A stretch of DNA of 64,000 bases, taken from NCBI GenBank assembly GCA_035636595.1, contig DASPYU010000016.1:193518-257517 (forward strand), written 5' to 3'. The notes beneath the pieces were generated by a model, which saw only the letters and a program-made list of their open reading frames with translations, was not told the DNA's origin and searched no databases. A program made the position numbers and the translations under genes. Positions 10,931 through 44,295 of the stretch are shown one piece after another. The first letter of the stretch is position 1. Every line of letters begins with the position of its first letter. The DNA is from Thermoplasmata archaeon (GTDB taxonomy: Archaea > Thermoplasmatota > Thermoplasmata > RBG-16-68-12).

Positions 10931-11002
10931 AGCCGCAGGGGGGAATTGAACCCCCGACCTGCGCCTTACCAAGGCGCCGCTCTACCCCTAAGCCACTGCG
11001 GC
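10931..11002 (-). tRNA. tRNA-Thr (anticodon GGU)
   Basis: Reverse complement folds as a cloverleaf: acceptor GCCGCAG/CTGCGGC, anticodon stem GCGCC/GGCGC with loop TTGGTAA, T-arm GTCGGGGGTTCAATTCCCCC. 72 nt. CCA not encoded. Confidence 0.85.
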
Positions 11003-16440: not shown

Positions 16441-17916
16441 TCAGGCGTCCATGTACCGGTAGAACTCGTACGGCGAGGGCCGGAGCGAGGTCTGCAGGTG
16501 CTCGTCGAGCTTCAGCTCCTCGTACTTCTCGAGCAGGTCCTGCGGGAACACGGACTTGAGGAACATGTAGTCCGTCTGCAGGTGCTCGATCGACTCCTTC
16601 AGGGAGCCGGGCAGCTCGCGGACACCGTACTCCTTGCGCTTGCTCGCGCTCAGGTGGTACAGGTCCTCGTCGACCGGATCGCCCGGATCGAGCTTCCGCT
16701 TGACGCCATCCAGGCCGGCGCACAGCATCGCTGCAAACGACAGGTACGGGTTGCACGCGGGGTCCGGCGTGCGGTACTCGATCCGCTTCGCCGCCTCAAT
16801 CCCTTGGTAATACATCGGGATGCGAATGTTCGCGCTCCGGTTCCGCTTGGACCAGGCGATGAACACGGGTGCCTCATAGCCCGGCACGAGCCGCCGGTAC
16901 GAGTTCGTCGTCGGGTTCGTGAAGGCGCACAGGCTGCGGGCGTGGTCCATCATGCCGCCGATGTAATAGCGGCAGGTCTGGCTGATCTCCGCGTACTCGT
17001 CCTCGGGGTCGTACATCATGTTCCTGCCTTTCGTCCAGAGGCTTTGGTGGACATGCATCCCGCTCGCGTTGTCGCCGAAGATCGGCTTTGGCATGAACGT
17101 CGCCATCATGCCCATCTTGTGGGCGACCATCTTCATGACGTAGCGGTACGTGACGACGTTGTCCGCCATCGGCACGAGTTCGTCGTAGCGCATGTCGATC
17201 TCGCACTGGCCGGCCGTCGCGACCTCGTGGTGGTGCGCATCGAGCGTCAGTCCGAAGTCGTCGATGAGGACGCGACACGCCTCGTTGCGGAAGTCTTGGA
17301 GGCTGTCGACCGGCGGCGCCGGGTAGTAGCCCTCCTTGAACCGGATCGGGAAATTCGTGCCGCTGCTCTGGCCCCACGGCGCCTCGCGCGAGACGATCTC
17401 GTAGCCCGCGCCGGCCCATGGGTTCCGCGCGGCGTCCGCGCTCGGGAGGAGACGAATCCCGTCGAACACGAAGAACTCGATCTCGGGACCCCAGTACGTG
17501 GTGTCGTAGCCTTGCTCGCCGGCGAACTGGGCGGCCTTCTGCGCCATGTACCGCGAATCGCGGGTGAAGCGCTCGTGGCTCCCGCCCTCGTACACGTCGA
17601 CGACGAACCGGGCGGTCTTGTGGGTGCCCTCGTACCACGGGAGGATCGCGAAACTGTTCGGGTCCGGGTTCATCACCATGTCCGACTCGTGGATCTCCTT
17701 GAAGCCCTTGATCGACGAGCCGTCGAGCTTGCCGACGCCCCTCTTGAACTCCTCCGGCCCGAGGGAGGTCGCGGGAATCGTGATGTGCTGCAGCGCGCCG
17801 AGCAGGTCCACGAACTGGAGGTCGATCCAGCGCACGCCTTCGCTCTCAATCCGTTTCAACACCGAAGCCACGGTCATCTTCGTCGTCTTCGCCGGAGTGC
17901 TCGAAGCGATTGCCAT
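16441..17916 (-). CDS. glnA: glutamine synthetase
   Basis: WIDLQFVDLLG, MCDTPWG-like core and adenylylation-loop region, about 490 aa. Track start is TTG 17922. First ATG is at 17916. An alternative start is MTVASV at 17877. Confidence 0.93.
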   Translation of the reverse strand: MAIASSTPAKTTKMTVASVLKRIESEGVRWIDLQFVDLLGALQHITIPATSLGPEEFKRGVGKLDGSSIKGFKEIHESDMVMNPDPNSFAILPWYEGTHKTARFVVDVYEGGSHERFTRDSRYMAQKAAQFAGEQGYDTTYWGPEIEFFVFDGIRLLPSADAARNPWAGAGYEIVSREAPWGQSSGTNFPIRFKEGYYPAPPVDSLQDFRNEACRVLIDDFGLTLDAHHHEVATAGQCEIDMRYDELVPMADNVVTYRYVMKMVAHKMGMMATFMPKPIFGDNASGMHVHQSLWTKGRNMMYDPEDEYAEISQTCRYYIGGMMDHARSLCAFTNPTTNSYRRLVPGYEAPVFIAWSKRNRSANIRIPMYYQGIEAAKRIEYRTPDPACNPYLSFAAMLCAGLDGVKRKLDPGDPVDEDLYHLSASKRKEYGVRELPGSLKESIEHLQTDYMFLKSVFPQDLLEKYEELKLDEHLQTSLRPSPYEFYRYMDA

Positions 17917-17928
17917 GCCCAACCCGCC

Positions 17929-17951
17929 CGAACGGACGCCGCGTCCGTTCG
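17929..17951. promoter_or_regulatory. 10-bp inverted repeat (CGAACGGACG-CCG-CGTCCGTTCG) between the glnA TATA box and start codon; candidate repressor operator
   Basis: Perfect palindrome seen directly. It lies about 26 nt downstream of the TATA box on the glnA strand, so it overlaps the predicted transcription start. Confidence 0.5.
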
Positions 17952-17976
17952 TCGTCTCTCGGCAGAAATGTGAACA

Positions 17977-17984
17977 TATATAAA
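17977..17984 (-). promoter_or_regulatory. archaeal TATA box (TTTATATA on minus strand) of the glnA promoter
   Basis: Consensus TTTATATA about 55–60 nt upstream of the glnA start codons, in the glnA/lrp divergent intergenic region. Confidence 0.55.
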
Positions 17985-18103
17985 CCGTTGGCTTCGCAAA
18001 TCGTACAGATGACCGGAATCCTCATATTCCACAGGACATTGTTCGGGAAACCCTGGGAGCGGGCCGCGCAATTCGAGCGTTCGACCGCCTCCGGACGGGA
18101 AGG

Positions 18104-18568
18104 ATGCCCATGGCCGCGCCTGCCGAACTCGACGACCTCGATGTGCGAATCCTCCGGCTGTTGAACGGCGACGCCCGCAAGTCGTTCCGCGAAATCTCGA
18201 AAGAGGTCGATGCGAGCATCAGCACGGTCTCCAGCCGGATCCGGAAGCTCGAGGAGGAAGGCGTGATCTCGGGCTACGCGCCGCTGCTCGCGGAGTCGAA
18301 GCTCGGCTACGATGTCCTCGCGGTCGTCGGCGTAAAGATCCACAAGGGCAAGCTCCTGGAGGTCCAGCGGCGGATCGCGAAGGACGAACGCGTCACGCAT
18401 GTGTACGACGTGACGGGGGAGTGGGACTCGATCGTCGTGGTCCGCCTTCGGACGACCCGCGAGCTCGATGCGTTCATCAAGCGACTCGGGTCGATGGAGT
18501 ACGTCGAGAACACCTACACGCAGGTCGTCCTAAACGTTGTCAAGGAGGAACGTCGGGTCCTCCTGTAA
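18104..18568 (+). CDS. lrp: Lrp/AsnC family transcriptional regulator
   Basis: LDDLDVRILRLLNGDARKSFREISKEVDASISTVSSRIRKLEEEGVI HTH plus a RAM domain. Divergent from glnA. GGAAGG SD upstream. Confidence 0.9.
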   Translation: MPMAAPAELDDLDVRILRLLNGDARKSFREISKEVDASISTVSSRIRKLEEEGVISGYAPLLAESKLGYDVLAVVGVKIHKGKLLEVQRRIAKDERVTHVYDVTGEWDSIVVVRLRTTRELDAFIKRLGSMEYVENTYTQVVLNVVKEERRVLL

Positions 18569-18638
18569 ACTACGAGGAATGCCTACACAACGTTTATGGC
18601 CGCACGCCCGGATATGTTCCAGGGGAGAGTGGAGGGGC

Positions 18639-19133
18639 ATGGCGGGCCTCCTGAATTTCGATCCGAACCGCGAGCTTGAGTTCAGCCCGGGACGCCCCTT
18701 GGAGTTCGATTCCCGCCGGCGCCTCGAGTTCGATGCGGGACGAGAGTTGGACTTCAACGAGGGTCGGGACCTCGGGTTCGGCCGCAGGGGCGTCGTGTTC
18801 CGCGGGTTCGTCTGCCCGATCTGCGGCGCCCTCGTGACGGAGGACGCGAAGCAGTGCAACGAGTGCGGCACCGTTTTCGACCGGGGCGCTCGAGCGGCGG
18901 CCCCGCCCGCCAAAGCCGCGCCGACTCCGCCCAAGACCGGGGGCCCGGCAGCTCCGACGCGCATCGCGGCGCCGCGGGAGGGCACCCAGTGCGCGTCTTG
19001 CGGTGCGAAGCTGAAGCGCGCGGACACGTTCTGTTGGAACTGCGGCAAGCGCGTGGCCGCGGCGACGGAGACGGTGAAGCTCCCGACGCAGAAAGTCCAG
19101 CCGGTCACCCGCGATTGGCGGGGGGAGAGGTGA
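18639..19133 (+). CDS. double zinc-ribbon protein with five tandem octapeptide (R-x-L-E/D-F) repeats
   Basis: From ATG 18639: MAGLLNFDPN, then RELEF-SPG-RPLEF-DSR-RRLEF-DAG-RELDF-NEG-RDLGF. Then CPICG...CNECG and CASCG...CWNCG zinc ribbons and a Pro/Ala-rich linker. The track ORF start 18537 overlaps lrp. Confidence 0.6.
   Translation: MAGLLNFDPNRELEFSPGRPLEFDSRRRLEFDAGRELDFNEGRDLGFGRRGVVFRGFVCPICGALVTEDAKQCNECGTVFDRGARAAAPPAKAAPTPPKTGGPAAPTRIAAPREGTQCASCGAKLKRADTFCWNCGKRVAAATETVKLPTQKVQPVTRDWRGER
18669..18779 (+). repeat. 5 x 24-bp in-frame tandem repeat encoding the R-x-L-E-F octapeptides
   Basis: Periodicity is visible in the translation and in the DNA (cgcgagcttgagttc / cgccccttggagttc / cgccggcgcctcgagttc ...). 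Confidence 0.6.
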
Positions 19134-19137
19134 GGCG

Positions 19138-19665
19138 ATGGCGATCTTCGGATTGAGCCTGTATACGTGGGTCATGATCGCGTTCCTCCTATTGCTCGTG
19201 CTCACGCTGATCCTCGGCGACATTGGAGGGCTGGACTTCGATCACGACATCGGCCTCGATGTCGACACGGGACTGAGCCCGCTGAGCCTGCCGATCATCG
19301 CGTCGTTCGGGACGGCGTTCGGGGGCTTCGGGACGATCCTCGAGGTGCTGGGCTTCGGAGAGCTACTCACGCCCCTCCTCGCGGCGGTCTTCGCAATCCT
19401 CGTCGCGGGCGGGATGTACGTCGTCATGCTGAACCTGTTTGTGAAGAGCCAGGCGGAGACGCGCGTGGACCTGGCCGCTCTGGTCGGCTACAAGGGCCAG
19501 GTCATGATCCCCGTGCGGCCCGGGCAGCCGGGGCAGATCGTCGTCGTGACGCCGGCGCGAGGGCGCACTTTGCTTCAGGCGATCGCCGAGGAGCCGATCG
19601 GCACGGATGAGCACGTCGTCGTCGATTCAATCGTAGGGAATTCGGTCAAAGTGCACAAGGTCTAG
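19138..19665 (+). CDS. NfeD-like membrane protein (flotillin partner, C-terminal OB-fold)
   Basis: 175 aa. N-terminal TM helices, C-terminal GYKGQVMIPVRPGQPGQIVVV...VVVDSIVGNSVKV beta-rich domain. 4 nt after the upstream gene and 11 nt before flotillin. Confidence 0.75.
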   Translation: MAIFGLSLYTWVMIAFLLLLVLTLILGDIGGLDFDHDIGLDVDTGLSPLSLPIIASFGTAFGGFGTILEVLGFGELLTPLLAAVFAILVAGGMYVVMLNLFVKSQAETRVDLAALVGYKGQVMIPVRPGQPGQIVVVTPARGRTLLQAIAEEPIGTDEHVVVDSIVGNSVKVHKV

Positions 19666-19676
19666 GAGGGAGAGCG

Positions 19677-21152
19677 ATGGCGGGAGAGGACATTATTGGA
19701 TTCGTCGTTCTGGCGATTGTGGGCGTCGTGTTCGGGACCGTCCTCGCGTATGCGAGCCGGTACAAGAAAGTCCCACCGAACATGGCGATGGTCATCTACG
19801 GACGGAAGCAGGGGGCGTCGGGAGGCCGCGGATACCAGGTCAAGTCCGGCGGCGCGAAGTTCATCGTCCCGATCTTCGAGTCGGTCGAGTGGCTCCGGCT
19901 CGACGTGCGGACGCTGGACCTCGTCGTCACGGACATCGTGACGGACGTCAAGCGATCCGGGGCCAAGATCAACATCAAGGCGGTGGCCCAGGTCAAGATC
20001 TCGTCCGACGAGGCGACCCTCGACACGGCAGCGGAGAACCTCCTCGGGAAGACGGAGCAGCAGATCGACGAGATCGCGCTGAAGACCCTCGAGGGCCACG
20101 TCCGTGGCGTGTGCGCCACCCTGACGGTCGAGGAGGTCAACTCGGACCGCGACGCGATCGCGTCGAAGATCCTCGGGATGGCGGGGAACGACCTCCGGAA
20201 CATGGGGATCGAGATCCGGTCGTTCGTGATCAAGGAGATCGAGGACGCGATGGGCTACCTGGACGCCCTCGGAGTCAAGCGGACGGAGGAGGTCAAGCGG
20301 GACGCGCGGATGGGCAAGGCGGGCGCGAACCGAGAGGCGACCATCGCGGAAGCCCAAGCGGCGCAAGAAGCGGAACGGGCGAACGCGAGCGCGGAAGCGA
20401 ACGTCGCCCAGTTCCACCGGGACCGAGACATCATCAAGCAACAGTCCGAGGCGACCGTCGAGTTCGAGCGCGCCAACAAAGAAATCGCGTTCCAGCTCCA
20501 GACGGCGAAGCGGCAACAGGAGCTGATCGTCGAGCAGCGGAAGATCGATATCCGGGCGAAGGAACAAGAGGTCCTCGTCCAGGAACAGGAGGTCCGCAGG
20601 CGGGAGCAGGAGCAGATGGCGGCCCAGGTCGTGCCATCGAGGATGCAGGCGGATGCGATGGCAGCCCTCGCGGACGGGGAGAAGCGGAAGCTCATCCTGA
20701 CCGCGGAAGGGGAGAAGGAACGGGCGATCCTCGTATCCGAAGGCGAGCGCGAACGGCTCTCGCGGACCGCCGCGGGGGAGGCGGAGCGGATCCGCCAGGA
20801 GGGCACCGCGGAGGCGGACATCATCCGGCTTAAGGGCGAAGCCGAGGCCTACGCGATCAAGGCGACCGGCCTCGCGACCGCCGAGGCCATGCGCGCGAAG
20901 GCGGAGGCCTGGGAGCAGTACGGCCGCGCGGCGATCACGCAGCTCATCGTCGAGAAGCTTCCGGAGATCGTGGCGAACGCCGCGAAGTCGCTCGAGACGA
21001 CCCAGAAGCTGATCATCATGGGCGAACGCGGACCCGCCCAGCTCGTCGGGAGCGTCGTGGACATCGCCGCGACGGCCCCGGCCCTGGTGAAAGCCCTGAC
21101 CGGAATGGACCTCTCCGAGCTCGCGGGGAAGCTCAAGGACATCTCGAAGTGA
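19677..21152 (+). CDS. flotillin / SPFH (band 7) domain protein
   Basis: 491 aa. N-terminal TM helix, SPFH domain, long Ala/Glu/Arg-rich coiled-coil repeats (EAERIRQEG...), flotillin C-terminus. GGAGGG SD. The 549-aa antisense ORF is an artefact. Confidence 0.9.
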   Translation: MAGEDIIGFVVLAIVGVVFGTVLAYASRYKKVPPNMAMVIYGRKQGASGGRGYQVKSGGAKFIVPIFESVEWLRLDVRTLDLVVTDIVTDVKRSGAKINIKAVAQVKISSDEATLDTAAENLLGKTEQQIDEIALKTLEGHVRGVCATLTVEEVNSDRDAIASKILGMAGNDLRNMGIEIRSFVIKEIEDAMGYLDALGVKRTEEVKRDARMGKAGANREATIAEAQAAQEAERANASAEANVAQFHRDRDIIKQQSEATVEFERANKEIAFQLQTAKRQQELIVEQRKIDIRAKEQEVLVQEQEVRRREQEQMAAQVVPSRMQADAMAALADGEKRKLILTAEGEKERAILVSEGERERLSRTAAGEAERIRQEGTAEADIIRLKGEAEAYAIKATGLATAEAMRAKAEAWEQYGRAAITQLIVEKLPEIVANAAKSLETTQKLIIMGERGPAQLVGSVVDIAATAPALVKALTGMDLSELAGKLKDISK

Positions 21153-21342
21153 GGGCGTGGTGAGCCCGCAGGCCGAGTGGTCGATCGGGAAGGATCCCGA
21201 CATCCTAATCGATATTTGGTCGACCTCGGCCTTGATCGAAGCGGTCCTCGAGGCCCTCCTCGAGGAACCGGAGAAGCTCGAGCTCGCGCTCCGAGCGCTG
21301 CGCCCCGCCAATCCGGCGTGAGTCGGAGAACCGGCCTTCGGC

Positions 21343-21582
21343 CTAGAGGTTCATCACGACGACGTCTTTCACGGCCCGCATGCCCTGGAACGGCAAGATG
21401 AGCCGACCCTCGGGGTCCGTCTTCATGCCTTTCGTCGGCACGTTCTCCGCCGGCAGCACGAGGACGTCGGACAGCTTCCCGCTCTTCGTGTTCACAATGA
21501 AGTTCTCGATCGTCCCCAGGATTTGACCGTCGTTCGTCATCACGGTCTTGCCCCGGAGCTCCGTGGCAAACTTCTTCATCCC
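21343..21582 (-). CDS. PRC-barrel domain protein
   Basis: 79 aa from ATG 21582: MKKFATELRGKTVMTNDGQILGTIENFIVNTKSGKLSDVLVLP...ILPFQGMRAVKDVVVMNL. The track's 279-aa upstream extension is Arg-rich junk. Confidence 0.7.
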   Translation of the reverse strand, partial: GMKKFATELRGKTVMTNDGQILGTIENFIVNTKSGKLSDVLVLPAENVPTKGMKTDPEGRLILPFQGMRAVKDVVVMNL

Positions 21583-21692
21583 ATCACCCGCATCGATGAG
21601 GCCCCGCCCCGGCACCGCCGCGACGGGATCCCATCCCTTGTCCGACAGACATCTGACGCGCGCTATAAGAAGATTCCGCCGCGATGGCCCAA

Positions 21693-22349
21693 TTACATGG
21701 AGGGCCGCTCGACCTGAGGCCGCGAGGGCGCCATCGCCCGCACGCTCTTCAGATACGGAATGCCCGCCCCGACGATCCCGAGGACGACGGAAGCCAGGAG
21801 GAGCCACCATCCCGCGCCCGCTCCCCATGACAGTTGCGTCGGGCCGGTGTTCGTGCTCCCCCAGAAGCCGCTGACCGTAAACGTGCCGAGGTCGGTCGTG
21901 GCGGCTCCGGGGATCGCGACGACCGGATAGAAAATCGCGAGCAGGCCCACGCCGACGACGAGCAGGCTGATCACGAGGAGCCCCAGCGTCGGCATGTTGC
22001 GTCCGATGGAGAAGGAGAACAGCGCGAACACGACGACGGCGAGGAGGATGAAGAGCGCGTCCAGGATGTAGGAGATGCCGAGGACACCGGCGACTGCGTC
22101 GAAACCACTCGAGGCGTACGGCACGATCGTGGTCCGTGTCCACGCGCCGCCCTGGTAGCGGTCCGAGGCCATCGTGGTCCACGAGAACGAGGTGACGTCC
22201 CGGACGTTGCCCGTGGCGTCACCGAGGGACCAGAAGGGCAGCGCGAGGGCGAGGAGAGCGAGGAGGACCGAAAAGCCGAGGGCAAGCCGCGAAGGGCCGA
22301 GACGCCACGCGCGGTCGACCCAGGTCCGCAATTCCGCAATCGGGTGCAT
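21693..22349 (-). CDS. hypothetical integral membrane protein
   Basis: 218 aa with about 5 TM helices and a Trp/Gly-rich tail. Confidence 0.5.
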   Translation of the reverse strand: MHPIAELRTWVDRAWRLGPSRLALGFSVLLALLALALPFWSLGDATGNVRDVTSFSWTTMASDRYQGGAWTRTTIVPYASSGFDAVAGVLGISYILDALFILLAVVVFALFSFSIGRNMPTLGLLVISLLVVGVGLLAIFYPVVAIPGAATTDLGTFTVSGFWGSTNTGPTQLSWGAGAGWWLLLASVVLGIVGAGIPYLKSVRAMAPSRPQVERPSM

Positions 22350-22404
22350 CGACCCCGCAAGATGAGGGGTGGATAAAAAGAGTCCGTCCTGATTTCGCGC
22401 CCGC

Positions 22405-24618
22405 TCAGCGGTACAGGACGCTCTCTTCGCGCTTCCGTTCGACGCCCTTCTTGAAGCGCTTGTCGAATTCCTCGTAGAACTTGATCGTGTCCGCGTCGAT
22501 GCTCGGACGGACGACCTTGATCGCCTCTTGGAAATGCGTCGTCGTCACGCGCTTCGCGTGCTTGCTCTCGCGGAGGGCGATCATCGCCGCCTCGCGGCAC
22601 AGCCCTTCGATGTCCGCGCCGGAGTAGCCGTCGAGATCGACCGCGAGCTCTTCCAGGTCGACGCCGTCGAGGGGCATCGTCCTCGTGTGGACCTTGAGAA
22701 TCGCGAGCCGCGCGTCCCTGTTCGGCGTGGGCACGAGCAGGATCCGGTCGAACCGGCCGGTGCGCAACATCGCGGGGTCGAGCCGGTCCGGCCGGTTCGT
22801 CGCGCCGATCACGACGACGCCTTCGAGGGACTCGAGTCCGTCCATCGACGTGAGCAGTTGGTTTACGACCCGCTCGCTCACGCCGCTGTCCGTGTCGAAC
22901 CCTCGGACGTGGGCGATCGCATCGAGCTCGTCGAGGAAGACGATGCACGGGGCGACCTGTTTCGCCTTCTTGAAGATCATCCGCACGGCCTTCTCCGACT
23001 CCCCGACCCATTTCGACATGACCTCGGGGCCCTTGATCGAGATGAAGTTCGCCTCGGACTCCGTCGCGACCGCCTTCGCGAGGAGCGTCTTGCCGCTTCC
23101 GGGCGGGCCGTACAACAGGATGCCGCGCGGCGGCCGGATGCCCATCCGTTTGAACGCATCCGGATCCTTCAAGGGCATCTCGACGGCCTCGCGCAGTTTC
23201 ATCTTGACGTCCTCGAGGCCACCGACGTCGGACCAGTTCACGCGGGGAACCTCGACGAGGACCTCGCGCATCGCGCTCGGCTCGACCTCTTTCAACGCCT
23301 GTTTGAAGTCGTCCGATAGGACGCGCATCTTCTCGAGCGTCTCGGCGGGGATCGGCTTGTCCAGATCGATATCCGGGAGGTACCGGCGGAGGGCCTTCAT
23401 CGCCGCCTCGCGTGCGAGCGCCGCCAGGTCGGCACCGACGAATCCGTGGCAGACGTCCGCGAGTTCGGAGAGGAGGTGATCGCGTTCGTCCTCGCCGCCC
23501 TCGATGGGCATGCCGCGCGTGTGAATCTGGAGGACCTCCTTGCGCCCCATGCGGTCCGGCACGCCGATTTCGATCTCGCGGTCGAACCGGCCGGGGCGAC
23601 GGAGCGCGGGGTCGATCGCCTCATCGCGGTTCGTCGCGCCGATGACGATGACCTGGCCGCGGCCCGAGAGGCCGTCCATCAGCGTCAGGAGTTGAGCGAC
23701 CACGCGCCGCTCGACTTCGCCCGTGACCTCCTCGCGCTTCGGGGCGATCGAGTCGAGTTCGTCGATGAACAGGACGCTCGGCGCGTTCTTCTGCGCCTCC
23801 TCGAACTTCTCCCGGAGACGCTCTTCACTTTGACCGTAGTACTTCGACATGATCTCCGGGCCCTGGATTGAATAGAAGTTCGCGCCCGCCTCGTTCGCGA
23901 CGGCCTTCGCGATCAGCGTCTTGCCGGTCCCCGGCGGTCCGTACAGCAGGACCCCTTTCGGCGGATCGATCCCGAGGCGCTCGAACAATTCCGCGTGCTT
24001 GAGCGGGAGCTCGATCATCTCGCGGACCTTCATCAGCTCCTCCTTCAGGCCGCCGATGTCCTCGTACGTCACCGTGGGCGTGAGGACCTCGCCCTCGCGG
24101 ACGGGCTCTTCTTTCATCTCGATGATCGTGTCGTCCTGAATCTGCACGATCCCCTTGGGAGCGGTACTGATGACCATGAACGGCAGGGCGCCACCCATGA
24201 GCGCGATGCCCGGCACGATGACCACGTCGCCCTTGTTGAGCGGTCGCTTGAGCAGCCCGCGTTTCACGAAGTTCTCGATTCCCTGACCGAACGAGATCTT
24301 GTGGCCTTCGCTGATGATCGGCGCAATCGTGATGCGCTCCGCGGGCAGGACCTCGGCCTTGCGAACTTCGACCTTGTCACCGAGGCTCACGCCGACGTTC
24401 CGGCGGACCAGACCGTCGATGCGGATGATGCTCTTGCCTTCGTCCTCCTGCATTACGCGGAACAACTTCGCCGCGGTGGACTTCTTGCCGATGATCTGGA
24501 TGATCTCGCCGACGTCGACGCCGAGCGCCACGCGGGTCTTCGTGTCCACTCGCGCACGTCCCAGACCCACGTCCGACTGGGGAGCTTCAGCGACCTTGAG
24601 CACGAGGCGCTCGGTCAC
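22405..24618 (-). CDS. cdc48: Cdc48/VAT-type AAA+ ATPase (two AAA domains plus N domain)
   Basis: 737 aa. Two Walker A ([16 protein letters not shown]), Walker B (DELDS, DELDA), second region of homology, double-psi N-domain. Confidence 0.95.
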
Positions 24619-31417: not shown

Positions 31418-33070
31418 TCAGAAATCTTCGCCTTCGCCCCCGCCGTCGCCGCCTTCGCCGCCCTTGCCGGGGCCCTTGCCGCCGCCTTCGCCGGCCCTTG
31501 CCGCGATGACGTCGTCGATGCGGAGCACCATGACCGCCGCGTCCGTCGCCGAGGAGATCGCTTGGCTCCCGACCCGGATCGGCTCGATCACGTTCTCCTT
31601 CCTCATGTCGGAGACCTTGCCGCTGAAGACGTTGATTCCGGCATGCTTGTTGCCCTTCTTGTGCTCCTTCCGGAGCTCGATGAGGATGTCAATCGGGTCC
31701 AAGCCTGCGTTCTCCGCGAGGGTGCGAGGGATGACCTCGACCGCGTCTGCGAAGGCCTCGATGGCGATCTGCTCACGCCCGCCGACGCTCGAGGCGAAGT
31801 CCCGCAGTGTGAGGGCGATCTCTGTCGCGCTCGATCCACCGCCGGTGATGACCTTGCCGTCCTCGATCGCGACGGCCACGACGCTCGTCGCGTCCTCGAG
31901 GGACCGCTCGACCTCGTCCACGACGTGCTCGGTGCCTCCTCGGATCAGGATCGACATCGCCTTCGGATTCTTGCAGCCCGTGACGAAGGTCATCTCGTCC
32001 TCGCCGATCTTCTTCTCGTAGACCATCTTGGCGTAGCCGAGGTCGTCCTTCGAGAGCTCGTCGAGCTTCGTGACGACCTTGCCGCCAGTCGCCTTCGCGA
32101 GCTTCTCCATGTCCGACTTCTTGACTCGCCGTACCGCGTAGACTTCGGCCTTCGCGAGGTAGTGCTGTGCGAGGTCGTCGATGCCCTTCTGGCAGAAGAT
32201 GACCGTGGCACCGCTCTTCTTCACGGTGTCGACCATCCGCTTCAGCATCGACTCCTCTTCGTTCAGGAACGCCTGGAGCTGGGTCGGGTCCGTGATCTCG
32301 ATTTTCGCGTCGATCTCGGTCTTCTTGACCTCCAGGGCCGCGTCGACCAAGGCGATCTTCGCGTCCTTGACCTCGGACGGCATGCCGGGGTGCACGCGCT
32401 CCTTGTCGACGATGACGCCGTCGACGAGGGACGTGTCCGCAATCGAACCGCCCTGCTTCTTCACGACCTGGATGTTGTCGTCGTCCACGAAGTAGGAGTC
32501 GTCCGCGCGCTGCTCTGCGACGGTCGTGACGGCCTTCACAGAGATGTCCGCCAAGAGTTCCTTGTGGCCGCTGGACGACTTCGAGGACATCGCGGTCATC
32601 GCGACCTTCCTCAGGACGTCCGTGTCTTTGATCGAAATCTTCGTCGCAACCTTCTCGAGGACCTCGCGGGCCTTCTCCGCCGCCTGGCGGTACCCGGCGG
32701 CGATAACCGTCGGGTGGATGTTCTGCTCGATCAGATCTTCCGCCCTCTTGAGCAGTTCCCCCGCCAGGATGACGGCCGTCGTCGTGCCGTCGCCCGCTTC
32801 CTCGTCCTGGGTCTTCGCGACCTCGACGAGCATCTTCGCGGCGGGGTGCTCGATGTCGATCTCCTTGAGGATCGTCACGCCATCGTTCGTGATGACGACG
32901 TCCCCGAGGCTGTCGACGAGCATCTTGTCCATTCCCCGCGGGCCGAGCGTCGACCGCACGGCGTCCGCGACCGCTTTCGCGGCGGCGATGTTGTTGAATT
33001 GCGCTCCCTTGCCGCGATCGCGGCGCGTCCCTTCCTTCAAAACGAGTATCTGCGTTCCGGCTGGCATCAT
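31418..33070 (-). CDS. ths: thermosome subunit (group II chaperonin)
   Basis: From ATG 33070: [52 protein letters not shown]...[14 protein letters not shown]-terminal GGM-like tail. The track start 33208 adds 46 junk residues across the promoter. Confidence 0.95.
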
Positions 33071-33120
33071 GTAAATCTCTCCGAATACGGAATTCGGGAC
33101 TCTGCCTATGTTGGGACTTC

Positions 33121-33127
33121 TATATAA
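33121..33127 (-). promoter_or_regulatory. TATA box (TTATATA on minus strand) of the thermosome / heat-shock operon promoter
   Basis: cgcttatatagaag on the minus strand, about 50 nt upstream of the thermosome ATG. AT-rich island within GC-rich DNA. Confidence 0.5.
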
Positions 33128-33492
33128 GCGTAGCGATGGATGGTTTGGTCCCATTGTCGGGGGATGCTTAAGAATACGCCCTGATGCGTCCCGTAGCGGG
33201 TGATGCAAATGGACTCCAAGAATCCGGAAGGGAATCGCCCTGCCGTTCCAGGACGGATGGGGCGACCTGATCCGGTGGGCGACCTACTGGAGCGCCCGAC
33301 GAGGGATGGCGTCCATGTAGGGTGCGTGCTACTGGTGGATTCATGCCTCCCGAGCCGACTGAAAGTGCCGAGGGATGCCTCTGACCATGGAACAGGAGGG
33401 TATGGACGCGCCGGTAACTTGTCCATACTACTTGTCGATGTATTCTCAGTACAGTAAACTGTAGACAAAAAGCCTTAATACGCACGCAGAGC

Positions 33493-33858
33493 TTGCTGAG
33501 AGCATGCGTACCTGAGACTCTGGAACAAACGGAAGAGGCCTTTTGTAGCTCTTGGCATCATCCGTCCAGAAACCCAGGACGAGAACACGTTAATATCGCG
33601 CCGGGCGTCCGGGTCGCCGTGCGGAAGGTGGTTTTCCCCAAGGACTTCAAGAGCAAGGTCCACCCAACCCAGATCAAACAGGCGTGCGAAAAGATACCTC
33701 CACGGAAGAAAACTCAGCACCTGAATCGCGATGTGGTGCTGACCATGGAGATGGGTGGTCCTTTTCTCTTTCTGACGTTCCAATACCATGAACATGAAGA
33801 CGAGGAAGTACTGTACGTAAAGAACGCGAAATGGACGAAATCTAAGGGTAAACGATGA
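33493..33858 (+). CDS. hypothetical small protein (TTG start), candidate toxin partner of the downstream Panacea-domain gene
   Basis: 121-aa ORF in lower-GC DNA. No in-frame ATG near its 5' end. Its stop overlaps the next ATG by 4 nt (ATGA). No recognisable domain. Confidence 0.25.
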   Translation: MLRACVPETLEQTEEAFCSSWHHPSRNPGREHVNIAPGVRVAVRKVVFPKDFKSKVHPTQIKQACEKIPPRKKTQHLNRDVVLTMEMGGPFLFLTFQYHEHEDEEVLYVKNAKWTKSKGKR

Positions 33859-34526
33859 CCGAAAACGGAGAGTGTGAGCACGAGGGGCAGTGGATTCCAA
33901 CCACCGCGGAGTTCGAGACCGTCCGCTGGAATGGCGAACCCCTCCTTTTGCACGACGTTCCAGCCAAGTCATGCCCGCTTTGCAATGAGACCATTGTCGA
34001 CGCGGATGATGTGATCCGGGCAGAGCAGAGATGGATAGCCGGAGAGCTGGGGCTTACTCCTCGGGAGGCAAACATCCTCCTGATGTTGTATGCCCAGGGG
34101 CCTCGATTCACCGAGACCGGTTATGTGGAGGAGAAGTACCGCTTCAACAAGATGCTCTTTTCCGTCTGGAAAGAACTCGAGAAGGAAGGGTTGGGGCAAT
34201 CTTTCCTCCACGACAGCTTCCGGGCGGAGAGCCGAGGGCCCGTTCCCGACAATCTGGAAACGGATTCGAAGTCTCTGGAAAGTAAGGGCCTTACCAAGGT
34301 GCGATGGGGAGGGAAGGCGGCCAAGACGTCATTCCGGTGGGATCTCACCACTGAAGGGTGGAATCGGTCGAAGCAGCTTTACAACTTGACACCTCAGGCG
34401 ATGCGTGACGCTGTGTCGAAAGCAAAGGAAGAACTCTTCCTGCTAGACTCCACCCAGATGATGCACAAGATCCACGAACTCTACCCCGAGTACAAGAAAG
34501 CTTACCGGGAAAAGGACGAAGAATGA
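33855..34526 (+). CDS. YgiT/MqsA-type zinc-ribbon plus Panacea (DUF4065) domain protein, putative type II antitoxin
   Basis: N-terminus GECEHEG...KSCPLCNETIVDADDVIRAEQ parallels the MqsA Zn-binding domain (CxxC/H ... CxxC). Central NILLMLYAQGP...FRAESRGPVPDNL matches the DUF4065/Panacea core (KLxKLLYxAQG ... FxAWxYGPV). Confidence 0.55.
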   Translation: MTENGECEHEGQWIPTTAEFETVRWNGEPLLLHDVPAKSCPLCNETIVDADDVIRAEQRWIAGELGLTPREANILLMLYAQGPRFTETGYVEEKYRFNKMLFSVWKELEKEGLGQSFLHDSFRAESRGPVPDNLETDSKSLESKGLTKVRWGGKAAKTSFRWDLTTEGWNRSKQLYNLTPQAMRDAVSKAKEELFLLDSTQMMHKIHELYPEYKKAYREKDEE

Positions 34527-34672
34527 GGCATCCCCTTCCACCGGAGCCCTCGGCACACATGCCGGGGGTTTCCTTTTTCGCCAGCCTTTTCCCAAGCCCT
34601 GGCCGCTTCGACGGCGAGAGTGGCACCTGAGGGAATTTCGCTGATACCCGAGACTTAAGGCGGCGGATTGTT

Positions 34673-34855
34673 ATGTCCGGGTCATTGGATACCCCACCCG
34701 CAACGCTGATCGGAGCCTTGATCGGGTTCGTCGGCGGACTCATCTATGGAGCCATGACCGGCCAGTGGATCACTGGCCTAATTGGCGGGACCATTATCGG
34801 AGCCATCGTCGGGGCTGTCGTTGACGCGATAGGCAAGCAGGTCGGAGGGGCCTGA
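34673..34855 (+). CDS. glycine-zipper micro-membrane protein (GlsB/YeaQ/YmgE-like)
   Basis: 60 aa. LIGALIGFVGGLIYGAMTGQWITGLIGGTIIGAIVGAVVDAIG with serial GxxxG/A motifs. ATG with AAGGCGG 8 nt upstream. Confidence 0.4.
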   Translation: MSGSLDTPPATLIGALIGFVGGLIYGAMTGQWITGLIGGTIIGAIVGAVVDAIGKQVGGA

Positions 34856-35125
34856 CCCCCCGACGGAAGGCCCTCACACGCCCGTCCGGGGCCAACAACG
34901 TCGCAACGGAACCCCACGTGGGCGTGCGCACAATCGCACACGGGGCGGCACTACGGCAGCCCAGTTTTCTTTCCGGATCGATCCTGACGACACGGGGCCC
35001 TTTATGAACCTCGACCCGAGGAGTTGACGAGACTCTCAGGCACTCTGACGCTCAAGCTCCTAGGCTCGAGAATCTTGTGCCTGGAAGGCCGCATGAGTGA
35101 TGGGCTCGGGACTGTAAGATGGAGG

Positions 35126-35530
35126 CTATTCATCCGGTGGCAACTCGATTTCCCATGTGCAGATCTCGACCAGAGTCTTCCTTATCCGGGTGTAGCTGGG
35201 TCCCGTGACGAGACTATGGGCCGGATTGGCCGTCTCCGGCGCATGCCGGACATTCAACTCACGGTCCCACATCTGGCCCGCGGTCGTCTTGACTACTCCA
35301 GCTCGTATCTCCGGTTTCGTCGAGCGTTCGAGAGTCCTCCGTGGCGTTGAGTATCTACTCCAGTCAAACGAGATGCCTTCGTCTATGTCACGCTCCTTCC
35401 CAAAGGCGCCAGGTTGAAGCTTGTGTTCGGGCCCCTTGGTGAAGTCGTCCGGCACCCATCTGAAGAAACAGTCCGCGGGATTCTTTATTTCCTGAGGCTG
35501 AGGAGGACCCTCTGCTAGCTCGTTAGCCAA
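35126..35530 (-). CDS. hypothetical protein (island ORF C) with HEPN-like Rx5H motif
   Basis: 134-aa ORF starting at TTG 16 nt before ORF B's stop. Same frame as ORF A. Contains RELNVRH and GISFDWSRYSTP. Confidence 0.3.
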   Translation of the reverse strand: MANELAEGPPQPQEIKNPADCFFRWVPDDFTKGPEHKLQPGAFGKERDIDEGISFDWSRYSTPRRTLERSTKPEIRAGVVKTTAGQMWDRELNVRHAPETANPAHSLVTGPSYTRIRKTLVEICTWEIELPPDE

Positions 35531-36069
35531 CTCACAAGACCTCGGTTCGGCTGGGTTGGATCGACGAGAGTACCATCGAATCTACCTCTGTCCTTACCGT
35601 CGCCTGCGAACTCCACTGGAAGTTTGGGGTCGGCCGGAATGTTGACAAGCAGGTTCAGATTTGGAAGATCCCAGAAAATGTCAATGCTCCCTTGCGGCCC
35701 CGGTCCGATCTCAGGCAGGGGCATGGGTTCGACGTTAAGACGTAGGTATTCCTGCCATTGGAGCCTCACGAACGCGATTGCCCTGTCCAGGGTGTCCTTG
35801 GAATAGCGAGGCGACCCCCGCCCGTCGAAGTTGTCCTTGAGGCCTAGGAGCCATTTGGCATCATCGATGATCCCGGCAAGCTTGTCGGACACAGCTGCGA
35901 ACTCGAGCTGCACCCCGTCCCGGTGCCGCTCCACGAGTTGTTCCAGCAGCGGCCGCGGCCTGACCGTATGCTGCGGCGGCCAAAGGTTGCGGGACTGAAA
36001 GTGCTGACGGTCCATGCAGGGCCACATCGGAATAGTCTTGCCATTAGAGTTCGAGAACGTTGATACCAC
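35515..36069 (-). CDS. hypothetical protein (island ORF B); possibly the out-of-frame middle segment of a disrupted larger gene
   Basis: 184-aa ORF that begins at GTG inside ORF A's last 26 nt. First ATG is 14 codons in. Its frame differs from A and C, which share a frame. Confidence 0.3.
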   Translation of the reverse strand: MVSTFSNSNGKTIPMWPCMDRQHFQSRNLWPPQHTVRPRPLLEQLVERHRDGVQLEFAAVSDKLAGIIDDAKWLLGLKDNFDGRGSPRYSKDTLDRAIAFVRLQWQEYLRLNVEPMPLPEIGPGPQGSIDIFWDLPNLNLLVNIPADPKLPVEFAGDGKDRGRFDGTLVDPTQPNRGLVSWLTS

Positions 36070-36724
36070 CTTCTCGCGCTGATGCCGTGAGACTTGCCTC
36101 CTTGTGAGTCGCCCTATCGAGCAACTTCTTCAGTTCCACGATGTCAGTACTGTCGAGAGCCACGAAGAAGTCCTTTGTCGTTTCCTCTCCATTCTCATGG
36201 AAGGTAATTTTCGCTTGATGCACGACGACAGCTGCCAACGGTCCCTTGTCCACATCTCTGCCAAATACTGGTCGTAGATCGGTCAGGATTCTCGCTGTGC
36301 AGAATACGTGATTCTGCTCGGACCGGACCTGGCTGGCTTTCGCGCTTACCCCAAGTGTGTCATCGAGTGAGAGGACTTGCGTAAGGTACGTCTTGAATTC
36401 GTTCCAGTTCACATCCTTCGTCGGCAGTTCGGGGTCTTTGGAGGCCTGAATTGTGTCGCATACATCCGCCGCAAACTTTTCCGTTGGATCCCCAGCGATA
36501 TCCATGGACTCATAGAGTCCAGCCAAAAGCCGGAATAGGCCATCCGCATCCGCTTTGGAAGCACCGGCCTTTTTTACCCACGCAGTAACGAAGCTGCGAC
36601 CGAGGAGGCTAGGCTTTGCTTCCTTCAGCACATCAAAGAGTTCCCTACGCTCCTTCTGAGAGAACCGAAGGAGCTGCGCGAGCACACGCTTCTGTTGTTC
36701 GGGAATTCCGAGACCGTCGGGCAT
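36044..36724 (-). CDS. hypothetical protein (island ORF A)
   Basis: About 226 aa from ATG 36724 (MPDGLGIPEQQKRVLAQLL...). Lower-GC codon usage. No recognisable domain. Its stop is overlapped by ORF B. Confidence 0.4.
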   Translation of the reverse strand: MPDGLGIPEQQKRVLAQLLRFSQKERRELFDVLKEAKPSLLGRSFVTAWVKKAGASKADADGLFRLLAGLYESMDIAGDPTEKFAADVCDTIQASKDPELPTKDVNWNEFKTYLTQVLSLDDTLGVSAKASQVRSEQNHVFCTARILTDLRPVFGRDVDKGPLAAVVVHQAKITFHENGEETTKDFFVALDSTDIVELKKLLDRATHKEASLTASAREGGINVLEL

Positions 36725-37017
36725 CGCGATCACGCCACGGCGGCTCTGATAGATTTGTTGTTCGCACGTACAAGAATGAATCTAGTGGTGACCAGAGAGC
36801 TGTCCCCTTCCCGGACGCAGGCGTCGTCCTTCCCCAGCAAGGACCCTTCCGAATCGACTATTGGATTTAAGGGTTTTGCCAAGGGGCGTCAAACCTTGCC
36901 GCTGGACGACCATGCACCTTAAGTTAACAAAACCCGCGCACCAGGTTTGACATTAGGAATCAGTCCTAAAGCGGCCACACCCGTCGCAATCCTTTGGTTT
37001 TGGAGTGGCAGATGGGC

Positions 37018-37464
37018 TCAGCTACCTGGAACGTACCATGACTGAACGTTCGTGAAACCCCACCGGACGAGCACGCTCTGCGCGACAGCGTAGCAACTTT
37101 CCGGCACGAGCAGCATGACCTTCGCTCCAGAGCTAACGTAGTCTCGTAACTGGCCGCGCGTGTGATCGTTGTCCAAATCCGCGCACGTCTTCACTTCGCC
37201 CATGACCCAAGCATTCCCCGGACCCAGCGCGGTGAGATCGGGAATCGATCCGCCGGCAGTTTGTCGTGGTTTGTTTGGAATCTCGGGCAAGGCGGCTGAG
37301 ATTTGAGTATATCCCCTTCCGCGTAGGGTTTCGACCCATCCGCGAAGCATACGGTCGTGTTGTTCCTGATCCGTCGAAAAAACCATGAGAAATCCGGCCT
37401 CGACTATCTCAGAGGGTCTGAGGCACATACTTAACTCTTTTCGGCGTTCGTTCCGATTGTTCAT
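37018..37464 (-). CDS. Hjc-type Holliday-junction-resolvase-like PD-(D/E)xK nuclease
   Basis: HDRMLRGWVETLRGRGY...IPDLTALGPGNAWVMGEVKTC...RGQLRDYVSSGAKVMLLVPE aligns with the Hjc pattern (ERELxKxLxxxGF...DLVA...IEVK...GRLIEF...VLAVKF). ATG 37464. Track start is TTG 37476. GC about 56%, versus about 67% for flanking genes. Confidence 0.45.
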   Translation of the reverse strand: MNNRNERRKELSMCLRPSEIVEAGFLMVFSTDQEQHDRMLRGWVETLRGRGYTQISAALPEIPNKPRQTAGGSIPDLTALGPGNAWVMGEVKTCADLDNDHTRGQLRDYVSSGAKVMLLVPESCYAVAQSVLVRWGFTNVQSWYVPGS

Positions 37465-37593
37465 CCGGATAACCAATCACCCAGTCAGTCCCCCGCGAGG
37501 GGACAGCTGGTCCATCCCCCGTTGATGAGACAACCTGATGGATTACCGCGCATGTGGAAAATCGGCGCCGTCCTCTCGCACGCGGTACCATAA

Positions 37594-37601
37594 TTCTATA
37601 T
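37594..37601 (+). promoter_or_regulatory. TATA box upstream of the IMPase-NADK operon
   Basis: ttctatat 24 nt upstream of GTG 37625. Leaderless-type spacing. Confidence 0.4.
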
Positions 37602-37624
37602 CAGGTAAGGCGGTAAGTTGGCCC

Positions 37625-38392
37625 GTGAAGGGACTTCTCCTCGAGCTCGCGGATGCCGTCCAGCACGCCGTCGACTCGTTCGCCGGGAATCCCGCCGAGG
37701 TGATCGGCCGCGGCGCGGATGGCGCACCGAGCACCCGCATCGACCGAATCGCGGAGGAAGCGGTCCTCCGCGTCCTAGATTACGAGGGGGCGGCGCTCAA
37801 CGTACTGAGCGAAGAGGCGGGATACGTCGATCGCGGCGGCGAAGCCACCCTCGTCCTCGATCCCATCGATGGGACCCATAACGCCCTGCGTGGAGTCCCG
37901 GCGTACTCCGTCTCCCTCGCGATCGGCCACGAACATCTGGCCGAAATCCAGGAGGCCCTCGTCCGGGACCTGGTGTCCGGCGCCACCTACTACGCCGCGA
38001 AGGGCGGCGGCGCCCTCCTCAACGGCCATCCAATCCATGTCCATGCGTACGATCCGAAGGACGTGTTGTTCAGCGTCTACCTCGGAACGAACGCGGCCCC
38101 GGACGCAACGCGGGTCGCGGGCCTCGCCCGGCGGGTTCGCGCTCTCGGGGCGGCATCCCTCGACATGTGCCTCGTGGCCCGCGGGGCCGCAGACCTGTAC
38201 TACATGCACAGCGCGACCGTCGACGCGAAATTGCGCGCCGTCGACATCGCCGGCGGGACGCTCATCGTGCGGGAAGCGGGGGGCCAGGTGCTCGACCTCG
38301 ACGGACGGGATCTCGATTTGCCGCTCACGACCGCGGCCCGCACCGACCTGGTCGCGGTCGGCGACCGACGAGCCTGGGAGGTCATCCGATGA
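37625..38392 (+). CDS. inositol monophosphatase / fructose-1,6-bisphosphatase family protein
   Basis: From GTG 37625: VKGLLLELADAVQ...DRIAEEAV...LVLDPIDGTHNA...WDxAAG-like. IMPase motifs DPIDGT and the C-terminal metal site. The track's 37538 start adds 29 unlikely residues. Confidence 0.8.
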   Translation: MKGLLLELADAVQHAVDSFAGNPAEVIGRGADGAPSTRIDRIAEEAVLRVLDYEGAALNVLSEEAGYVDRGGEATLVLDPIDGTHNALRGVPAYSVSLAIGHEHLAEIQEALVRDLVSGATYYAAKGGGALLNGHPIHVHAYDPKDVLFSVYLGTNAAPDATRVAGLARRVRALGAASLDMCLVARGAADLYYMHSATVDAKLRAVDIAGGTLIVREAGGQVLDLDGRDLDLPLTTAARTDLVAVGDRRAWEVIR

Positions 38393-44210: not shown

Positions 44211-44295
44211 GCGTGGGTTGCCAAGCTTGGTCAAAGGCGCAGGACTCAGGATCCTGTCTCGTAGGGGTTCGCAGGTTCAAATCCTGCCCCACGCA
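44211..44295 (+). tRNA. tRNA-Leu (anticodon CAG), type II with long variable arm
   Basis: GCGTGGG acceptor, anticodon stem CAGGA/TCCTG with loop CTCAGGA, 14-nt variable arm, T-arm GCAGGTTCAAATCCTGC, 3' CCCACGC plus A. 85 nt. CCA not encoded. Confidence 0.9.

Follow-up and report, generated by a model that had tools for sequence, protein, structure and literature searches.

A zinc-ribbon protein with an octapeptide array and a 54-residue protein accompany an archaeal NfeD–flotillin gene pair

Four co-directional open reading frames (ORFs) lie on the + strand at positions 18639-21321 of a 64,000-nucleotide stretch of DNA from a Thermoplasmata archaeon (contig DASPYU010000016.1; hereafter the window, with a GC content of ~65%), and all four are present in the sequence at the coordinates given below. 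Gene 1 (18639-19133, +) starts with ATG and encodes a 164-amino acid (aa) protein with octapeptide repeats and two zinc ribbons, gene 2 (19138-19665, +) encodes a 175-aa predicted short NfeD of the YuaF/YqiJ type, gene 3 (19677-21152, +) encodes a 491-aa flotillin of the SPFH2 type, and gene 4 (21157-21321, +) starts with GTG and encodes a small protein of 54 aa. The gaps between genes 1 and 2, genes 2 and 3, and genes 3 and 4 are 4, 11 and 4 nucleotides (nt) in length, respectively. An earlier note on this DNA had described the first three genes as lying 4 and 11 nt apart, and the ORF coordinates give exactly these values. The note had also placed a 54-codon GTG-initiated ORF 5 nt after the flotillin stop codon; the ORF is indeed found there, but the gap is 4 nt in length, a value of 5 being reached when the count ends on the opening base of the GTG. 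The best explanation for the region is that it represents one transcription unit with its own promoter, encoding what would be a four-part archaeal flotillin membrane-scaffold system.

Purine-rich sequences resembling a Shine–Dalgarno (SD) element precede the start codons of genes 1-3, namely GGAGGGG for gene 1, GGGGGGAGAGGTGAGG for gene 2 and GGAGGGAG for gene 3. The SD-like purine-rich stretch GGGGAGAGTGGAGGGG (18622..18637, +) lies directly 5' of the gene 1 start codon, with the gene 1 SD sequence GGAGTGGAGGG being kept across loci, while the gene 2 SD sits within the 3' end of gene 1, covering its last codons and stop codon, and that of gene 3 is found 5 nt ahead of the ATG. Further upstream, a promoter-like motif, CCTACACAACGTTTATGG (18582..18599, +), which resembles a TFB-recognition element (BRE) followed by a TATA box (TTTAT at 18593-18597), is located ~44 nt 5' of the gene 1 ATG and falls downstream of the stop codon of the preceding Lrp/AsnC regulator gene. 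The motif, as CCTACACAACGTTTAT ~44 nt before the start of the zinc-ribbon gene, is near-identical in ~40 syntenic loci, and in a non-syntenic distant clade CATAACGCTTATAT is found at the same distance although the upstream genes are unrelated. We infer that this conserved motif is the operon's own archaeal BRE/TATA promoter, which would make the zinc-ribbon gene the first cistron and leave the Lrp gene outside the unit. Because the promoter motif falls inside the longer ORF that would begin at an upstream TTG (18537), and because the N-termini of homologues agree with the shorter form, ATG 18639 was preferred as the start of gene 1.

The gene 1 protein contains two CxxC...CxxC zinc ribbons, matching Pfam DZR (PF12773) with 40 bits against a cut-off of 27.3 and Zn_ribbon_3 (PF13248) twice, in agreement with the double zinc-ribbon identity proposed for it earlier. 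These precede a C-terminal tail and follow an array of five octapeptides (DPNRELEF, SPGRPLEF, DSRRRLEF, DAGRELDF and NEGRDLGF), which occupies aa 8-47 (18660..18779, +) after a conserved LLNF (aa 4-7). The earlier note had read the array as five R-x-L-E-F repeats; the number of five stands, whereas the motif, with x3-R-x-L-x-F as the repeat unit, is better written as F-x3-R-x-L-x-F with a period of 8. The array is followed by a lead-in, G-x-R-G-V-V-F-R-G-[YF]-V, and zinc ribbon 1 (C59, C62, C73 and C76; together 18780..18866, +), then by a variable Pro/Ala-rich linker (aa 82-115), zinc ribbon 2 (C118, C121, C132 and C135; 18990..19043, +) and a tail of the form E-x-V-K-L-P-x2-K-x3-V-T-R-x-W-R (19068..19130, +). 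Both ribbons score above threshold for DZR and Zn_ribbon_3; however, these models span only the 20-25-residue ribbons, the 50-residue N-terminal array and the C-terminal tail fall outside every Pfam and NCBIfam model, and no match begins before aa 47. Pfam and NCBIfam also gave no helix-turn-helix (HTH) or other known DNA-binding domain in this protein. Since it possesses neither a signal peptide nor a transmembrane (TM) or other hydrophobic segment, the gene 1 protein must, as judged from its sequence, be cytoplasmic. Tandem Repeats Finder detected no DNA-level repeat in the octapeptide (octad) region, so the 8-residue spacing is upheld in the protein rather than in the DNA; an origin of the octads by recent slippage was rejected on the same result.

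The homologue search recovered 147 full-length homologues of the gene 1 protein at E<=1e-3, of ~155-240 aa, and those with names come from Thermoplasmata, 'Euryarchaeota' or Methanomassiliicoccales metagenome-assembled genomes (MAGs), all of Thermoplasmata type. Over the whole analysis, the record titles that give a taxonomy name Thermoplasmata, Thermoplasmatota, Methanomassiliicoccales and 'Methanobacteriota' MAGs, with one labelled Methanomicrobiales. In an alignment of 24 sequences, F7, R11, F15, R19, F31, R35, F39, R43 and F47 of the array are invariant, as are G-x-R-G-V-V-F-R-G of the lead-in, all eight Cys residues and the C-terminal V-x-L-P...R-x-W (V146, L148, P149, R158 and W160). When the alignment is extended to 119 sequences with identity down to ~26%, R11, F31, F39, F54, R55 and the four Cys of zinc ribbon 1 (C59, C62, C73 and C76) remain invariant, and F7, F15, R19, R27, R35, R43 and F47 are conserved in at least 90%. 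Phe and Arg are thus kept at a strict 8-residue period despite an overall identity of ~26-30%, so the repeats do not vary as simple low-complexity sequence, in line with the earlier claim that they form a real array, and we conclude from the alignments that the octads are under strict purifying selection.

A profile search over 1.84 billion representatives gave 4,339 matches at E<=1e-3, many of which are generic multi-zinc-ribbon proteins, and 29 matches at E<=1e-30. Among the best 150 profile matches, ~50 clusters align from the N-terminus and carry the array. The 11 most divergent members (35-53% mutual identity over the module) have exactly five octads in register, followed by F-G-x2-G-x2-F-R-x3-C-x2-C. 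Overall, the octad number is fixed at five, with four in two subclades. Beyond ribbon 1, the members differ greatly, with linkers of 30 to more than 100 residues and one to three more ribbons; most end in a Trp-containing motif, the distant ones with one or two C-terminal [VI]-[ST]-W-[DE]-E-[YF]. The array and the first ribbon are the best conserved parts, and the second ribbon and the tail are highly variable. A profile of the N-terminal module searched against a 90%-clustered database found only 4 proteins, all on short contigs. One member, P0121 (L097:263-1186; 307 aa), carries the octad array plus zinc-ribbon module twice in tandem. As judged by these comparisons, the gene 1 protein belongs to a real, conserved and previously undescribed family with an uncharacterised domain composed of the octad array and a zinc ribbon.

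AlphaFold2 modelling with the 119 sequences gave a predicted local distance difference test (pLDDT) score of 86-91 for the zinc ribbons, a confident prediction, and of 70-79 for the array, with a predicted template modelling (pTM) score of 0.29. The array was modelled as an extended chain with no regular secondary structure and no globular fold, as expected for a segment that may fold on a partner. In an extended strand, the R, L and F of each octad lie on one face, the opposite face being variable and mostly acidic or polar, with turn-formers between the octads. In a Foldseek comparison with the PDB, the sole matches were zinc-ribbon or RanBP2-type pieces of 24-35 residues (E>=0.075), and the array was left unmatched.

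The gene 2 protein has three hydrophobic segments, which were read from the sequence by eye, together with a loop rich in Asp (aa 28-46) and a beta domain at the C-terminus (aa 114-174). The window protein itself matches PF01957, the model of the C-terminal OB-like domain of NfeD, weakly (E=0.18, 12.5 bits against a cut-off of 29.1, aligned over positions 3-57 of the 57 in the model), and its profile search against the PDB returned only 2k5h (E=0.095). By contrast, PF01957 matches 10/10 aligned orthologues at E<=1, the best at 1.6e-6, and several orthologues carry precomputed matches to PF25842 (NfeD_TM). Gene 2 lies directly upstream of its SPFH partner, an order kept in 45/45 loci. Given the orthologue matches, the anatomy and the position directly upstream of flotillin, we accept the earlier identification of gene 2 as a short NfeD (NfeD2), though on weaker sequence evidence than that available for gene 3. 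The loop after the first TM segment (window 19219-19275) has Asp alternating with hydrophobic residues (DFDHDIGLDVD), and in distant loci (L030, L079, L092 and L093) it is expanded into runs like DMDMDMDFDVDVDVD or into His-rich GGHDVDF repeats, the composition of which suggests metal or cation binding by the expanded loop.

Gene 3 matches Band_7 (PF01145) at E=9.1e-19 over aa 31-227 (68.6 bits against a cut-off of 23.6) and, marginally, Flot (PF15975) over aa 378-455 (28.2 bits against a cut-off of 27). Its product consists of an N-terminal hydrophobic anchor, the SPFH domain, a Glu/Ala-rich coiled coil and the Flot C-terminal domain, and its best NCBIfam match is FloT (NF058507), aligned over full length with 284.6 bits against an equivalog cut-off of 700. 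These profile matches identify gene 3 as a flotillin that is a relative of FloT but not its equivalog, and the flotillin with a long Ala/Glu coiled coil described previously is borne out by them. Because Lys and Arg residues occur right after the flotillin anchor and after the third NfeD segment, the positive-inside pattern predicts that the bulk of both proteins faces the cytoplasm.

To survey gene neighbourhoods, loci were drawn from an exact look-up of homologues, from a pattern scan across GTDB that took a single genome for each species (29 loci) and from a pattern scan of Joint Genome Institute (JGI) metagenomes (57 loci), for which the pattern was taken from a narrower alignment as the 30-sequence alignment was too divergent; 74 distinct loci were examined with tblastn. 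NfeD is found next to the zinc-ribbon gene in 56/58 distinct loci with at least 500 nt downstream, and of the two exceptions one (L082) is an artefact of the overlap criterion while the other (L070) is a rearranged or disrupted contig end. Flotillin is present in 45/45 loci with at least 1500 nt downstream. The distance from the zinc-ribbon gene stop to the NfeD start, as projected, is 1-7 nt or an overlap in most loci. Ten loci without the Lrp/GlnA/PRC/CDC48 synteny of the window still keep the trio, with overlaps or gaps of a few nt. Furthermore, eight very divergent members with 26-36% identity (P0192, P0274, P0279, P0277, P0241, P0121, P0214 and P0174) were looked up singly; their loci range from 38 to 68% GC and all their flanks are different, while an NfeD-type gene follows in 8/8 and flotillin, wherever the contig reaches far enough, is 58-69% identical to that of the window. 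At least eight unrelated flanking contexts thus keep the trio. Every relative with enough sequence has the zinc-ribbon gene directly upstream of NfeD and flotillin, as the earlier note had described for the window. The survey thus shows genes 1-3 being passed on together over deep divergence, with almost no space between them even where the surrounding genes change.

Additional members of the same protein families were seen in some of the surveyed operons. Distant operons contain an extra short SPFH (Band_7) gene of 182-225 aa (L092:5068-5616, L098:4248-4904 and L099:2299-2976), sitting just upstream of the zinc-ribbon gene or between the zinc-ribbon gene and NfeD; L098 is the locus of one of the eight divergent members looked up singly. 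In another locus (L031:8644-10234), a second NfeD–stomatin pair directly follows flotillin.

Gene 4 had been put forward only as a possible fourth component, and its conservation was therefore checked. The 54-codon ORF is open, with start and stop codons, in all 23 loci besides the window in which tblastn found it, and a codon alignment of 21 of these ORFs gave pairwise divergences of 0.32 at the first, 0.28 at the second and 0.49 at the third codon position, indicating that the frame is coding. A profile search found 216 stand-alone homologues of 50-66 aa, one of which, annotated as hypothetical in a Thermoplasmata MAG (528-kb contig), is 100% identical to the protein of the window. The consensus is VEWSxGKDPDLxxEIWSTAALxEAVLxALLExPExL, and no Pfam family matches it. 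In most loci gene 4 starts 4 nt past the flotillin stop. One locus of 41% GC with other neighbours and no PRC gene (L094) carries a match to the gene 4 hidden Markov model (HMM) at E=2.3e-7, located 4 nt after flotillin; as this copy sits behind flotillin amid different neighbours, gene 4 belongs with the flotillin unit. The idea that gene 4 is conserved merely by abutting a convergent PRC-barrel gene was rejected, as it stays in the flotillin-strand unit past an inserted gene and occurs in L094 where the PRC gene is absent. In several distant clades the HMM found no copy behind flotillin. By sequence criteria, gene 4 is a real small protein gene, a frequent but dispensable member of the flotillin unit.

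The inserted gene is found in five close relatives (L004, L005, L007, L012 and L022), between flotillin and the small ORF, which trails it by a few nt. Its product (L007:8724-9368 and L004:8614-9174) begins with a zinc ribbon, continues through a Pro-rich linker and a single TM segment, and includes a beta domain of ~110 aa; Pfam gave no match for it. These operons have thereby gained a second zinc-ribbon protein, this one anchored in the membrane.

The pairing of NfeD with SPFH genes is conserved (PMC2636767), and abbreviated operons of flotillin with YqiJ/YuaF are reported to be widespread in bacteria and archaea (PMC11237479, PMC2636767). The B. subtilis yuaF–floT(yuaG)(–yuaI) and E. coli yqiJ–yqiK operons have the same three-TM short NfeD directly upstream of flotillin, and their flotillins share the TM anchor, SPFH domain, Glu/Ala coiled coil and Flot domain with that of the window. 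Unlike the window, they have no zinc-ribbon/repeat gene at the head and no 54-aa gene at the end, the only third gene described there being the B. subtilis-specific acetyltransferase gene yuaI. In S. aureus, the cytosolic OB-like domain of NfeD binds the flotillin coiled coil and stabilises oligomers that hold clients at the membrane (PMC11222466). This NfeD–FloA core is likely shared with the window system; however, it comprises two components, with a FloA (SPFH5-like) type of flotillin, a longer NfeD and no extra soluble subunit known. The literature searched describes neither a zinc-ribbon repeat protein nor a 54-aa protein as a member of an NfeD2–SPFH2 operon. What is known is therefore the NfeD2–SPFH2 pair, and what appears to be new is one universally linked and one frequently linked putative subunit in this archaeal group.

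In function, the closest precedent is the B. subtilis pspA–ydjGHI operon, in which YdjG, a protein with two zinc ribbons, and YdjH are needed for membrane localisation of YdjI (PMC8581546), the two-zinc-ribbon protein and the membrane protein being encoded just upstream of the SPFH protein. YdjG differs from the gene 1 protein by being membrane-anchored and carrying an NTF2-like domain (PMC11237479), whereas the window protein has no hydrophobic segment or further domain. YdjH is a TPM-domain protein in the place where the window has NfeD, YdjI, the SPFH protein, is soluble and contains a zinc ribbon itself, and the operon is built around PspA, which is absent from the window operon. With no octad repeats in pspA–ydjGHI, the similarity of the two systems is that of generic zinc ribbons, and by analogy the B. 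subtilis operon may serve as a precedent for zinc-ribbon proteins acting as partners of SPFH scaffolds.

On balance, we lean towards the gene 1 protein serving the NfeD–flotillin oligomer as a dedicated subunit or adaptor in the cytoplasm; the pointers to such a role, and to the scaffold or cargo adaptor suggested in the earlier note, are gene order, coupling and domain anatomy. Strict co-inheritance, the first-cistron position and the coupling to NfeD argue for a dedicated physical partner. The placement of R, L and F on one face, together with the fixed repeat number, suggests multivalent docking on a repeating surface, and the octad array may dock in this way on the cytoplasmic loop or the OB domain of NfeD, or on adjacent flotillin protomers; we rate any particular docking site considerably lower than the role of subunit or adaptor. 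The zinc ribbons and the C-terminal Trp motif, on flexible Pro-rich linkers, would extend into the cytoplasm, where they could retain or bring in a client or a further partner; the impression given by the Trp tail, the additional ribbons and the variable linkers is that of a tethered recruiting end. The product of gene 4, putatively a helical protein of 54 aa, would be the fourth part of the scaffold system. Several points weigh against this assignment. The array lacks structural precedent in the Foldseek comparison with the PDB, making any binding mode a guess; zinc ribbons are generic modules that can also bind nucleic acids; and octad number shows no covariation with the length or acidity of the NfeD loop (r ~ -0.2).

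A more specific version of the docking model would have the octad array act as a molecular staple or ruler. SPFH proteins assemble into rings and domes (PMC12624060), and each octad could bind the same site on successive ring protomers, one protein clamping five subunits and thereby setting or stabilising the curvature or size of an archaeal flotillin cage, with the ribbons and Trp tail recruiting clients and the 54-aa protein as a further cage component. One octad is ~26 Å in length when extended, which would match the subunit spacing expected from published dimensions of SPFH rings. We hold this version to be unlikely; if true, it would represent a new class of SPFH-cage accessory subunit.

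The nucleic-acid binding capacity of zinc ribbons raises the possibility that the gene 1 protein is instead a regulator, the ribbons of which control transcription or translation of the operon while the repeats sense what state the membrane complex is in. Annotations of small zinc-ribbon proteins from archaea frequently invoke nucleic-acid binding, as in the homologue names 'predicted nucleic acid-binding Zn ribbon protein' and 'RPABC4/Spt4', and the zinc-ribbon gene heads the operon; however, those names are generic automatic labels, and the protein has no HTH or known DNA-binding domain. It is the array and first ribbon that are best conserved, while the second ribbon and tail vary greatly, and translational coupling to NfeD points to matched output of complex partners. 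We therefore regard a regulatory role as quite improbable. To the same low degree we credit the proposal that the protein is a client or cargo which flotillin–NfeD holds, sequesters or concentrates at the membrane. Such a proposal would accord with the unfolded clients held by S. aureus flotillin–NfeD (PMC11222466) and with the prediction that most of the zinc-ribbon protein is extended or disordered, but a dedicated cargo without recognisable activity is hard to rationalise, and the Arg/Phe periodicity resembles a docking device rather than a payload.

Another possible target of the array is lipid, with Arg contacting phosphate head groups and Leu and Phe inserting into the interface, which would make the gene 1 protein a peripheral protein marking or shaping the flotillin microdomain. 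The sharing of one strand face by R, L and F, opposite a variable and polar face, and the extended AlphaFold2 conformation would both be compatible with such binding. By contrast, in segments that bind lipid Lys can generally replace Arg, Phe can give way to Trp, Tyr or Leu, and the number of repeats differs. In the gene 1 family Arg and Phe hardly change at all and the octad number is fixed, and we consider lipid binding more doubtful still. Finally, the adjacency of the genes could be inherited synteny without any functional link. In the largest clade the whole block (GlnA-Lrp-...-PRC-membrane protein-CDC48) is kept, so that adjacency there proves little; the trio is, however, also kept where the neighbourhood is unrelated, in no fewer than eight cases and with the GC of the loci ranging over 38-68%, which strongly disfavours this explanation and leaves it a very slim chance.

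The unit is preceded by the Lrp/AsnC regulator gene (18104-18568, +) and, beyond it, a divergent glutamine synthetase gene, and it is followed by convergent genes for a PRC-barrel protein, a membrane protein and a CDC48 ATPase. In the main clade this block (window 16441-18568 and 21343-24618) reads glutamine synthetase (-), Lrp/AsnC (+), the operon, PRC-barrel (-), a 218-aa membrane protein (-) and CDC48 (-), and relatives have a bactofilin-like gene after CDC48. A link of the flotillin unit to CDC48 or the PRC protein is unsupported, as the distant contexts are without both. With a CDC48 gene close by, the sequence 'DLGFGRRG' was considered as a Cdc48-binding SHP box and rejected, given that it misfits the motif and that CDC48 is absent from the distant contexts. 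The small ORF is separated from the convergent PRC-barrel gene by a 21-nt spacer (21322-21342) with a short GGCC-TTC-GGCC inverted repeat, and in several relatives the two overlap by 4 nt. An Rfam scan found no RNA family in the operon region, the only matches in the window being two tRNA genes at 10931-11002 (-) and 44211-44295 (+). Elsewhere in the window, positions 32000-38000 have a GC of 0.57-0.59 compared with ~0.65 for the rest; a thermosome (Cpn60/TCP-1) gene (31418-33208, -) marks the start of this stretch, in which several ORFs of 180-230 aa lack a Pfam match and no rRNA or other Rfam family lies, and which may be a foreign island.

The function of prokaryotic flotillin–NfeD assemblies and the control of their size and clients are still debated, and to our knowledge almost nothing is known of the archaeal ones. 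A strictly co-inherited soluble partner with a simple periodic docking motif, together with a conserved micro-protein, would provide two concrete handles on what the scaffold recruits. In addition, the octad/zinc-ribbon domain could be given a family model with which to annotate proteins of archaeal metagenomes that are now called 'hypothetical' or mislabelled as RNA polymerase subunits.

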